A stretch of DNA of 64,000 nucleotides, taken from positions 192,410 through 256,409 of the forward strand of contig JBBDJR010000006.1 of assembly GCA_040879785.1 (NCBI GenBank), given 5' to 3'. Of this stretch, positions 44,542 to 46,218 are shown in pieces. Numbering within the stretch: position 1 is the stretch's first letter; the number at the start of each line of letters is the position of its first letter. Origin of the DNA: Candidatus Pacearchaeota archaeon (GTDB lineage: Archaea; Nanobdellota; Nanobdellia; Pacearchaeales; GW2011-AR1). A program made the translations under genes and the position numbers. The notes under the pieces are model-generated. The model made no database searches and had not been told where the DNA came from. It saw nothing but the letters and a program-made list of their open reading frames with translations.

Positions 44542-45324
44542 ATGGATGAAAATAAAATAAGGGAATCTTTTAGAAAAGCCAAACAAGATATAACAAATCT
44601 TTATTCTGAGATTAGCTCTCTTAGAAATGAATTCCGGCAAACAAAAGATGAACTGATAAATCTTACAAGAGTTCTAGACGAAATAAACAACAAAATAACT
44701 AAAAATCACACAAATTCTACTGAAAACACTTCGACACATCCTTCGACACAAGAGTCTTCAAATCAGACGTTTTCGACACATCCTTCGACACATAATTTCC
44801 CTCTAAAGCCCTTAAAGACCCAAAATATGGGTATTTCCACACGAAATCAAGGGGTTTCGACAGACAGACAGACAGACAGACAGACAGACATTCGACACAT
44901 AAATCCCCCCCAAGAACCTAAAAAGGAACCTTTTGATGAAAGATCTGAATACTCACCTCCAAAAAACCCATTTCAAGACAACCAAGCAGGCTCTATAAGT
45001 GATGCAGCAAACATCCTTGATTCTCTAGATAGTATAAAAAAAGAGATTAGGCTTAAGTTCAAGAGACTTACAGACCAGGAAGTTCTTGTTTTCTCTACTC
45101 TTTATCAGCTCGAAGAGGAAGAGGGTTATGCTGATTATAGGAAAATAGCAGAGAAGATAAACCTCACAGAAAGCTCCATTAGAGATTATATTGGGAGACT
45201 CATAAAAAAAGGAATTCCCGTCGACAAAAAGAGGATAAATAACAAAACTATTCACATATCTATCTCAGAAAACCTTAAGAAAATAGCATCTCTTCCAACA
45301 ATCTTACAACTAAGAGACATCTAA
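44542..45324 (+). CDS. Coiled-coil / repeat-linker / C-terminal wHTH protein (paralog A)
   Basis: N-terminal coiled coil. The central part has STHPST repeats and DRQTDRQTD encoded by DNA repeats. The C-terminus is LTDQEVLVFSTLYQLEEEEGYADYRKIAEKINLTESSIRDYIGRLIKKG. Confidence 0.5.
   Translation: MDENKIRESFRKAKQDITNLYSEISSLRNEFRQTKDELINLTRVLDEINNKITKNHTNSTENTSTHPSTQESSNQTFSTHPSTHNFPLKPLKTQNMGISTRNQGVSTDRQTDRQTDIRHINPPQEPKKEPFDERSEYSPPKNPFQDNQAGSISDAANILDSLDSIKKEIRLKFKRLTDQEVLVFSTLYQLEEEEGYADYRKIAEKINLTESSIRDYIGRLIKKGIPVDKKRINNKTIHISISENLKKIASLPTILQLRDI
44859..44890. repeat. (GACA)8 tetranucleotide microsatellite inside a CDS
   Basis: A direct count gives 8 perfect units, translated as DRQTDRQTD. 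Confidence 0.95.
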
Positions 45325-45603
45325 ATCCCAGTTTTCGCTTAACCGAATAAGTCTAATCCTCTCTTTTACAATATATCTTCTGATTATACCATCTAATATC
45401 CTCTTATTTTAGCCCATTTCTCCCACCTTAGAGCCCTAAACTCTCTTTTTGTCGTTTTATTCTCTCATAGATCCTCTTTACACCATCAAAAGCCAGATAT
45501 ACCTCACTTTTACCTCTTTTTTCACATAAATCAGGATATAATCTCTAAAATTAAACCAAATCAACTCTCACTTTTTTAATTTTTATCTATTCTTAACCCC
45601 CTT

Positions 45604-46218
45604 TTATTCATCTCCTTCGCTTTTTTTCTTACTTCTAACTCTCACTTTTGCCTTTTTTAAGAGTTTTTCCCTCGTTTCTTCAGGAATAAACACCCTTTTT
45701 TTCCCGTTTTTCTCTACTACTTCCTCAACCAAACCATCACTTTTCTGTTTTATCCGGTTTATATGGCCCCTCACAGTTGATCTCTCCTTTCCAAGTATTG
45801 ACGAAATATCATCATAACTAAGCCTCATGTCCGAATTAAGTAACACCCAAAGTATTGCTCTCTCAGTTACTGAAAATTGGTCAAAATTTGGTGTTTGAAC
45901 ACCTGTTTGAACACCTGTTTGAACAGCATAAACACCTGTTTGTTTATCAAACACCTGTTTGGCTGTTTGTTTTTGCTGTTTAGGTTTGAGCTCATTCATG
46001 ATAGAAACAACATTTTTTATACCTTCTATCTCTTCATTTATCGTCGATAAAGTTTCTTTTATTTCTTCAATGTCTTCTTTTTGTAAATTTCGCTCAGAAT
46101 CAAGGTGTTTAATCCATGTACTCATGGAATTTATGTCTTTTTTAACTAAATCAAAACTGTTTTTTGTGTCCTCTTTTAGACTTTCAACATCTTTTTTCTT
46201 AAAAAACCACCCAAACAT
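45604..46218 (-). CDS. Coiled-coil / repeat-linker / C-terminal wHTH protein (paralog B)
   Basis: Same architecture as 44542..45324. It has a coiled coil, a QTGVYAVQTGVQTGVQT linker, and the C-terminus FSVTERAILWVLLNSDMRLSYDDISSILGKERSTVRGHINRIKQK. Confidence 0.5.
   Translation of the reverse strand: MFGWFFKKKDVESLKEDTKNSFDLVKKDINSMSTWIKHLDSERNLQKEDIEEIKETLSTINEEIEGIKNVVSIMNELKPKQQKQTAKQVFDKQTGVYAVQTGVQTGVQTPNFDQFSVTERAILWVLLNSDMRLSYDDISSILGKERSTVRGHINRIKQKSDGLVEEVVEKNGKKRVFIPEETREKLLKKAKVRVRSKKKSEGDE
45897..45960. repeat. Four copies of [g/a]aacacctgttt within the CDS 45604..46218
   Basis: Copies are at 45897-45908, 45909-45920, 45930-45941 and 45949-45960. Confidence 0.9.

Follow-up and report, generated by a model that had tools for sequence, protein, structure and literature searches.

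This report concerns two convergent genes, here called A and B, in a 64,000-nucleotide stretch of the genome of a Candidatus Pacearchaeota archaeon (the window). The source genome (552 kb, 73% complete) carries a single copy of orc1/cdc6, and A, B and a small winged helix-turn-helix (wHTH) gene, wH88, lie 1.2-3 kb from the replication origin, oriC, an arrangement found in 80/80 relatives. AlphaFold2 models of A and B, made from 30-sequence alignments, gave for both proteins one confident long helix, a low-confidence coil and a confident helix-helix-helix-strand-strand winged helix. A preliminary description of this DNA had given the coordinates and convergent orientation of the two genes correctly, had placed them near the origin and had assigned them a shared architecture; the helix, linker and winged helix are present in both models, and its "coiled coil" would be formed by what is predicted as a single long helix. 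The genes and their parts are:

44542-45324, plus strand: gene A, 260 amino acids, reading frame unbroken in each of the 80 relatives
44548-44721, plus strand: N-terminal helix of A, residues 3-60
44722-44997, plus strand: disordered linker of A, residues 61-152
44998-45318, plus strand: winged helix of A, residues 153-259
45604-46218, minus strand: gene B, 204 amino acids, convergent with A
45988-46212, minus strand: N-terminal helix of B, residues 3-77
45871-45987, minus strand: disordered linker of B, residues 78-116
45658-45870, minus strand: winged helix of B, residues 117-187

We compared the window with 80 related loci from different species, labelled Pacearchaeota, Woesearchaeota or Nanoarchaeota, and built codon alignments from them. 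In alignments of 30 homologues, the linker segments were among the best-conserved parts of both proteins (consensus ...STHPSTHN.P.KPLK.QN..ISTGNQGVPTDRQTDRQTD in A and KQVFDKQTGVYAVQTGVQTGVQTPNFDQFS in B). Two stretches were constrained at the codon level:

44746-44889, plus strand: constrained stretch of A, residues 69-116, codon homozygosity 0.92 versus 0.45 expected
45874-45972, minus strand: constrained stretch of B, residues 83-115, codon homozygosity 0.88 versus 0.52 expected (p 8.5e-7)

In the rest of A, which comprises the helix and the winged helix, codon homozygosity was 0.50 versus 0.47 expected; the constrained stretch differed from this rest with a Mann-Whitney p of 4.5e-14. The codons fixed in the A linker include rare ones: TCC and TCG (8% usage each), GGG (20%), GAC (25%) and CAG (31%). 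Since synonymous positions are near-frozen in the linkers and free in the folded domains across the 80 genomes, the constraint acts on DNA. Amino-acid changes in the linkers also follow DNA logic. The variable residue of B (G, A or P) corresponds to the centre GG, GC or CC of CAAACA-SS-TGTT, the arms of which are constant, and residues S, P and Q of A (TCG, CCA and CAG) swap ahead of an invariant ACA. DNA signals within the coding sequence thus appear to have shaped the linkers, rather than the protein. The preliminary description had called the linkers low-complexity and had suggested a survey of their repeat number in relatives. They are not a variable low-complexity spacer: no other DNA of the two genes is as conserved, and their synonymous positions are near-frozen in the 80 genomes.

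The A linker contains an origin recognition box (ORB), followed directly by a tandem repeat. The elements in this part of A are:

44834-44855, plus strand: in-gene ORB TTTCCACACGAAATCAAGGGGT, read as I-S-T-R-N-Q-G-V, 1.5 kb right of oriC
44856-44899, plus strand: tandem-repeat tract beside the ORB G-string, TTCGACA + (GACA)8 + TTCGACACA
44859-44890, plus strand: (GACA)8
44730-44750 and 44772-44792, plus strand: two 21-nt units TTCGACACATCCTTCGACACA, 100% identical
44730-44792, plus strand: four TTCGACACA direct repeats, in the two 21-nt units

The oriC with which this box was compared lies in a 487-bp gap right of orc1 that has archaeal origin anatomy, namely minus-strand ORBs, an AT-rich stretch and a plus-strand ORB. 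Its elements are:

42950-42974, minus strand: ORB-like box L2 TTTTCCATACGAAATCAACGTGTGG, 3 mismatches, 35-60 nt 5′ of the orc1/cdc6 start
43050-43070, minus strand: oriC ORB L1 TTCCACAGGAAATCTAGGTGT
about 43090-43300: candidate unwinding element, AT-rich and microsatellite-bearing, flanked by inverted ORBs
43306-43327, plus strand: oriC ORB R1 TTTTCATAGGAAATCAAGGGGT

Inverted ORBs around an AT-rich element beside orc1 are thus seen for 43050-43070(-) and 43306-43327(+). The GC fraction of 43001-44000 is 0.286, and the ACGAAA variant of box L2 is also used at the oriC ORBs of relatives.

The in-gene box is 86% identical to R1. It contains the ORB dyad, TTCCACACGAAAT at 44835-44847 (TTCC...GAA, TTCCA-N-TGGAA), and the G-string, GGGG at 44851-44854. 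Among the A genes of relatives, 74/76 match TTCCANNNGAAA, 21 contain the exact Pyrococcus sequence ATTTCCACTGGAA, and GGG is the glycine codon in 76/76. The DNA that encodes the relatives' ISTGNQGV is mostly (A/T)TTTCCAC(T/A)GGAAAT(C/G)AAGGGGTT. The box was present in 80/80 relatives, mostly with 0-1 mismatch, and a whole-genome scan found three ORB matches with at most 2 mismatches, L1 among them, all at the origin locus. When the 80 loci were scanned, ORBs fell in only three places: the gap between orc1 and the PRC-barrel gene (62 minus-strand boxes on the orc1 side and 57 plus-strand boxes on the PRC side), gene A (81 matches, all in sense orientation) and, at a small number of loci, a site upstream of B. 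The same pattern scan found no ORB in dp1, the gene for the PolD small subunit, in the 80 loci. We also examined 19 distant loci from other families of the class, in which the A homologues are weak (tblastn E 1e-13 to 1e-35), scanning for ORBs independently of open reading frames. An ORB with 0-2 mismatches lay in the A homologue at 15/19 of these loci, on the sense strand, directly after the N-terminal helix and read as (S/I)STGNEGV. Judged by its sequence, the box in A has the canonical form of an archaeal origin recognition box and is a putative Orc1/Cdc6 site.

Since all 80 relatives keep A as a single open frame, the constrained stretch is also translated. The linker peptides ISTGNQGV, TDRQTDRQ and VQTGVQTGVQT, which are conserved in 30/30 aligned homologues, could therefore have been selected as short linear motifs, with the DNA identity as a by-product. 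We consider this very unlikely. Peptide selection would not fix synonymous positions or rare codons, and at other invariant residues the synonymous positions are saturated. Moreover, chemically unlike residues (G/A/P and S/P/Q) interchange where the DNA motif permits, and the sequence equals a known DNA-binding site.

The repeat sequences of A are not there by chance and are largely confined to this gene. Genome-wide, (GACA)n occurs in A only, as do 5/6 copies of TTCGACACA. In relatives, A has 2.7 copies of TCGACA[CG]A per kb and other regions have at most 0.05/kb, and ACAGACAG, at 6.8/kb, is restricted to A. The tandem repeat is always 3′ of the ORB, and its unit is lineage-specific: TCGACAGA + (ACAG)n in the family of the window, and (ACAA)n, (AATC)n, (CATT)n or 12- to 24-nt units in other lineages. 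For the 60 nt that follow the ORB, the best self-match had a median of 0.66 versus 0.44 in random control segments, and it reached at least 0.7 in 30% of cases versus 0% of controls. In distant families (loci L086-L099), in-frame (ACAA)9-10, (AATC)n and (CATT)n are translated as QTNKQTNK... and INQSINQS.... It is unusual for long tetranucleotide repeats within genes to stay in frame across lineages.

A perfect tetranucleotide tract in an open reading frame, 5′ of the part encoding a DNA-binding domain, and with a perfect run of 0 to 10 units between species, might be a slipped-strand contingency switch that turns A on and off. This is highly improbable: in 81/81 genomes (the window and its 80 relatives) the gene is in frame, point changes break up the tract in many lineages yet retain the ACAGAC pattern, and the tract belongs to the larger conserved ORB composite.

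That composite could instead be an initiator loading or unwinding module, with replication start or MCM loading inside A. It would then be an archaeal counterpart of the DnaA-box and DnaA-trio or of the lambda iterons, and the wHTH domain of A would be an accessory initiator. The pairing of ORB and repeat is kept across families while the units change (ACAG, ACAA, AATC, CATT, 12- to 24-nt), as such a module might be. Most units are T-rich on the complementary strand, and Aeropyrum pernix Orc1 prefers T-rich single-stranded DNA (PMC8287685). The A domain is weakly like replication-initiator wHTH domains (HTH_36, DnaD_N, PHROG), and in 10/42 relatives a second composite, ORB+TTCGACAC (also ORB+GGGGCTTCGACACAT), faces that of A from upstream of B, in the opposite orientation. 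However, a classical oriC with inverted ORBs and an AT-rich region already lies 1.5 kb away, the ORBs of this oriC lack such repeats, (GACA)8 is 50% GC with no adjoining AT-rich stretch, and the similarities to initiators either miss their thresholds or lie close to them. We therefore regard such a module in A as unlikely. We are equally doubtful of a related form of this idea, in which the ORB and short-period repeat make up a module in an accessory origin-binding gene whose recognition specificity co-evolves with the repeat unit of the lineage.

The second composite lies 103-139 nt 5′ of B in loci L009, L010, L028, L038, L065, L068 and others. At such loci, inverted ORBs bracket the 3′ half of A, the gap between A and B, and B. 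The window has no second ORB composite upstream of B.

The linker DNA of B contains a palindrome array instead of an ORB, and related elements lie upstream of the gene:

45897, 45909, 45930 and 45949, minus strand: four 12-bp quasi-palindromes (G/A)AACACCTGTTT with half-sites, 45897-45960, in the B linker
46314-46431: array 5′ of B, AAACA(C/G)C half-sites at 8-19 nt spacing
46401-46412 and 46420-46431: two perfect palindromes AAACAGCTGTTT, in the array upstream of B
46240-46247, minus strand: TATA box TTTTTAAA of the B promoter, within promoter 46240-46270
about 46256-46268, minus strand: B promoter motif CCGACGGAAAAG

The four B units, like the two copies of TTCGACACATCCTTCGACACA and (GACA)8 in A, were located where the preliminary description had put them. 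Genome-wide, AAACASSTGTT is confined to B and its upstream region, and AAACAGCTGTTT with at most 1 mismatch has 5 matches versus 0.41 expected. In relatives, AACANNTGTT is dense in the B coding sequence (4.7/kb) and in the 400 nt upstream of it (2.9/kb) but rare in the remainder of the loci (0.05/kb). When 42 B upstream regions were aligned on the ATG, the palindromes lay at -114 to -324 and the TATA box ATTTTTAAA at -33 to -25. Distant B homologues have in-gene arrays with altered half-sites, such as GGACACGTGTCC.

Because the palindromes occur both in the B coding sequence and 5′ of its TATA box, beyond the B mRNA, a function in DNA is favoured over one in RNA. In principle, the conserved feature could act in the mRNA, which might fold, be targeted by a small RNA or cause translation to pause; every in-gene ORB reads along the sense strand, and RNA copies of the B repeats would be able to pair with one another. 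Yet oriC and the region upstream of B have ORBs in either orientation, a palindrome centre that becomes GC is not matched by a compensating change in the terminal AAACACC unit, and an Rfam search of 42800-46800 found no family. We judge an RNA-level explanation to be quite unlikely, a little less so than a contingency switch or selected peptides.

Nearly all 42 relatives have the promoter motif CG(T/A)CG(A/G)AAAAG at about -50, just 5′ of the TFB recognition element (BRE) and TATA box. We considered 46253-46275 as a degenerate ORB and rejected it, as the alignment of 42 promoters shows a distinct CG(T/A)CG(A/G)AAA motif. Similar CG(T/A)CG(A/G)(A)AAA copies are synonymously constrained in B at 46041-46047 (Leu-Ser-Ser, TTA TCG TCG), and another copy of this type lies at 46455-46470. 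A further patch in the wHTH-coding part of A, CCC GTC GAG AAA, resembles the B promoter motif CGWCGRAAA:

45217-45228, plus strand: small synonymous-constrained patch CCCGTCGACAAA, residues 226-229 of A (CCC 0.74, GTC 0.89, GAG 0.90)

The genome has 6 scattered copies of CCGTCGACAA, which may therefore be the site of a general promoter-proximal factor. A scan for bacterial promoters and terminators was uninformative, as the host is archaeal. A trend that linked the type of B recognition helix (GHLNR versus GQIN) to the palindrome centre (GC versus CC/GG) was confounded by phylogeny and was dropped.

The surroundings of A and B are also conserved. The neighbouring genes in the window are:

40045-41631, minus strand: dp1, PolD small subunit
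41699-42916, minus strand: orc1/cdc6
43404-43661, plus strand: PRC-barrel gene, 85 amino acids (PF05239, 3.3e-9)
43746-44162, plus strand: g138, a 138-amino-acid protein with no Pfam or NCBIfam match
44219-44485, plus strand: wH88, 88 amino acids, weak sub-threshold Pfam match to HTH_69 (3.4e-4)

Wherever contigs extend, the order is dp1(-), orc1(-), oriC, PRC(+), g138(+), wH88(+), A(+), B(-). Among the 80 loci, wH88 was present in 80, A in 80, B in 77, g138 in 76, PRC in 74, orc1 in 54 and dp1 in 51. wH88 was directly 5′ of A in all 80, and B was convergent and 3′ of A in 42/42 loci. Parts of the cluster are still present in distant families. Beyond B, no gene was conserved across the 80 loci. 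The families of A and B each have more than 2,300 homologues. Family A was found in 12/13 genomes of the same family and in 151/301 of a phylum sample, in which often only the wHTH domain of A matches in distant genomes. In DPANN archaea of the Pacearchaeota/Woesearchaeota type, A and B belong to the chromosomal core and lie beside the origin. The fixed chromosomal position beside orc1 in 80/80 loci and the wide distribution of the families led us to reject mobile-element cargo. The plasmid or virus origin that the preliminary description had offered thus gives way to syntenic core genes of a whole archaeal class; the PHROG similarity is weak.

Both C-terminal domains are predicted with confidence as winged helices (AlphaFold2 predicted local distance difference test scores of 85-95, topology H-H-H-E-E). 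Foldseek matched both to MarR/MepR/AbfR2-type winged helices (E about 1e-4, probability 1.00), and Pfam HTH_36 was above threshold for A (3.9e-7, 30.2 bits versus a cut-off of 25), in agreement with the wHTH fold proposed earlier. For B, all Pfam HTH matches were sub-threshold. The A domain also showed weak but consistent similarity to initiator-type domains (DnaD_N, 6e-4; PHROG replication initiation, 4e-4, and O-like, 1.8e-3). No named family emerged from NCBIfam or from profile searches against PDB sequences, in which all matches were to generic HTH models or structures and below threshold. The fold of both domains is that of MarR/Lrs14-type regulators, including archaeal AbfR2, and there are weak NCBIfam matches to Lrs14 and Sta1. 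However, neither protein had a MarR family model above cut-off in Pfam or NCBIfam, and dimerization would use a separate N-terminal helix of 60-75 residues joined by a long linker, in place of the helices beside the wHTH that form the MarR dimer interface; we therefore rejected A and B as MarR family members proper. The single long N-terminal helix suggests a coiled coil, and A and B are probably dimeric DNA-binding proteins.

We compared A with B to ask if they are paralogues, as had been proposed. BLASTP of A against B gave no significant match (E 0.56). Profile-profile alignment (hhalign) joined the N-terminal helices with a probability of 89-91% (E 1e-6, 23 columns, motif F..VK.DI). The wHTH domains aligned weakly and co-linearly (probability 35%, E 4e-4, 49 columns; recognition helices ESSIRDYIGRL versus ERSTIRGHINRI), and cross-domain controls were below 1%. 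Distant paralogy is plausible, with weak support.

A model that we hold to be the best explanation, with a probability of about 65%, is that the linker-coding DNA of A and B doubles as cis-acting DNA of a nucleoprotein domain flanking the origin. The model builds directly on what the sequences and predicted structures show: constraint at the DNA level, a motif with the identity of an ORB, motifs specific to this locus, synteny with orc1 and winged-helix folds. The ORB in A would be a satellite site of oriC at which Orc1/Cdc6 binds, as at the Pyrococcus dp1 cluster, and winged-helix dimers would bind repeats in or beside their own genes, B the palindromes and A the repeats beside the ORB. The nucleoprotein domain formed in this way, to the right of the origin, could feed back on transcription of A and B, coupling their expression to initiator occupancy, and could tune origin firing or the handling of the origin region. 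The disordered linker peptides would be largely passengers that tolerate embedded DNA elements, as in lambda gene O.

Several points weigh against this model. The host organisms are uncultivated, binding of the proteins to the sites is predicted from sequence, and the pairing of each wHTH domain with a given repeat is a guess. The dyad of the in-gene ORB in the window has CGAAA, not GGAAA, a variant shared by the oriC ORBs of relatives. Since the palindromes lie 100-320 nt from the TATA box, and not over it, simple operator-type autorepression is not obvious, and no clear upstream palindrome copies were seen for the distant B homologues. The conserved linker peptides may also have some role at the protein level.

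The closest known arrangement is that of the Thermococcales (Pyrococcus and Thermococcus), in which dp1 contains a cluster of ORBs and mini-ORBs at a distance of about 1.5 kb from those of oriC (Matsunaga et al. 2007, PMC1904270). Cdc6/Orc1 binds this cluster both in vitro and in vivo, the whole order keeps the arrangement, and Pyrococcus furiosus ORB1-3 and mini-ORB oligonucleotides with ATTTCCACTGGAA, to which the core of the ORB in A is identical, bind Cdc6/Orc1 in vitro (PMC1904270). As in Pyrococcus, the ORB described here is in a coding gene about 1.5 kb from oriC, beside orc1/cdc6; it has the same dyad core, TTTCCACTGGAA, and is the same-orientation outlier relative to the oriC pair. 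In contrast to dp1, the host gene is a helix/wHTH gene across oriC and the ORB lies in DNA that encodes a disordered linker. Synonymous sites are frozen, a tandem repeat is always paired with the box, and the arrangement recurs in many DPANN families, where it is known from sequence. As a lineage very distant from Pyrococcus shows this pattern too, archaeal origins in general may have satellite ORBs about 1.5 kb away.

A second precedent is bacteriophage lambda, the origin of which lies within gene O. The O domains are joined by a flexible linker, the origin is in the linker-coding part, and in-frame deletions in the AT-rich part leave O functional (PMC6022878). In both cases, origin repeats lie in the linker-coding DNA of a DNA-binding replication protein or candidate, and the wHTH domain of A is weakly O-like/HTH_36 (E 1.8e-3). 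In lambda, however, O binds the iterons by its N-terminal domain and an AT-rich region adjoins, whereas the DNA-binding domain of A is C-terminal, no AT-rich region adjoins, the known element is one at which a different protein, Orc1, is predicted to bind, and the locus belongs to a cellular chromosome.

Initiator sites outside the core origin also modulate initiation at datA and DARS of E. coli. In Haloarcula hispanica, an ORB cluster downstream of oriC2 negatively regulates the origin (PMC4010727). The likeness lies in initiator sites outside the core origin; the review text searched does not place the Haloarcula cluster in coding sequence. We also considered the haloarchaeal "oap" genes, which are associated with origins, but they have no relation to A or B (small GTPase). 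Nothing relevant was found in a literature search for DPANN origins, ORBs or replication control.

The preliminary description had also suggested segregation or centromere-binding proteins, and a role of this kind is possible for A and B. Bacillus subtilis has parS within spo0J (parB), and RacA with its ram sites near the origin. Like these, A and B have a predicted own-gene binding site near the origin, or combine a putative coiled-coil protein with origin-proximal palindromes. No sequence or fold relationship to spo0J or RacA was found, and no partner ATPase is conserved in the origin cluster of the 80 loci.

ORBs inside a coding gene were thus already known from Thermococcales, and origins inside initiator genes from lambdoid phages. 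What is new here is that the host is another gene, for a DNA-binding protein without a named family, that its synonymous sites are frozen, that a tandem repeat with a lineage-specific unit always accompanies the ORB, and that a neighbouring gene has a parallel palindrome array. In DPANN archaea, which have tiny genomes and are mostly without cultures, the locus forms a conserved module of one initiator gene, a classical oriC and three flanking winged-helix genes, two of which hold initiator-type or palindromic sites within their own reading frames. It offers a natural example of dual coding, in which disordered linkers carry cis-acting DNA. It also calls for caution, as conserved "low-complexity" peptides may not be protein motifs and synonymous sites in such stretches should not be taken as neutral. 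As a practical matter, the motif set is a simple locator of origins in metagenome-assembled genomes of Pacearchaeota and Woesearchaeota.

Some smaller features of the locus were also noted. Small PRC-barrel proteins are linked to archaeal cell division, and the PRC-barrel gene in the cluster hints at a replication/division neighbourhood. A weak ORB-like match, GGAATTAAAGGGGT (2 mismatches, 43417-43430, minus strand), lies within the first codons of this gene. The length of A ranges from 207 to 280 amino acids in the 80 relatives, and the C-terminal part of its linker varies. The gap between A and B (45325-45603, 279 bp between convergent stops) has 15 G versus 75 C on the plus strand; since it spans 41 to 590 nt in relatives, it is not a conserved element. 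Finally, a 19-bp repeat, TAAC..AACCTAAGTGAACA, occurs at 46526-46544, 47047-47065 and 47404-47422. As TTGTGCACTTAGGTTA-like 9-mers lie upstream of B in 17-25 of 42 relatives, this element appears to be older than the "cassettes" of the genome.

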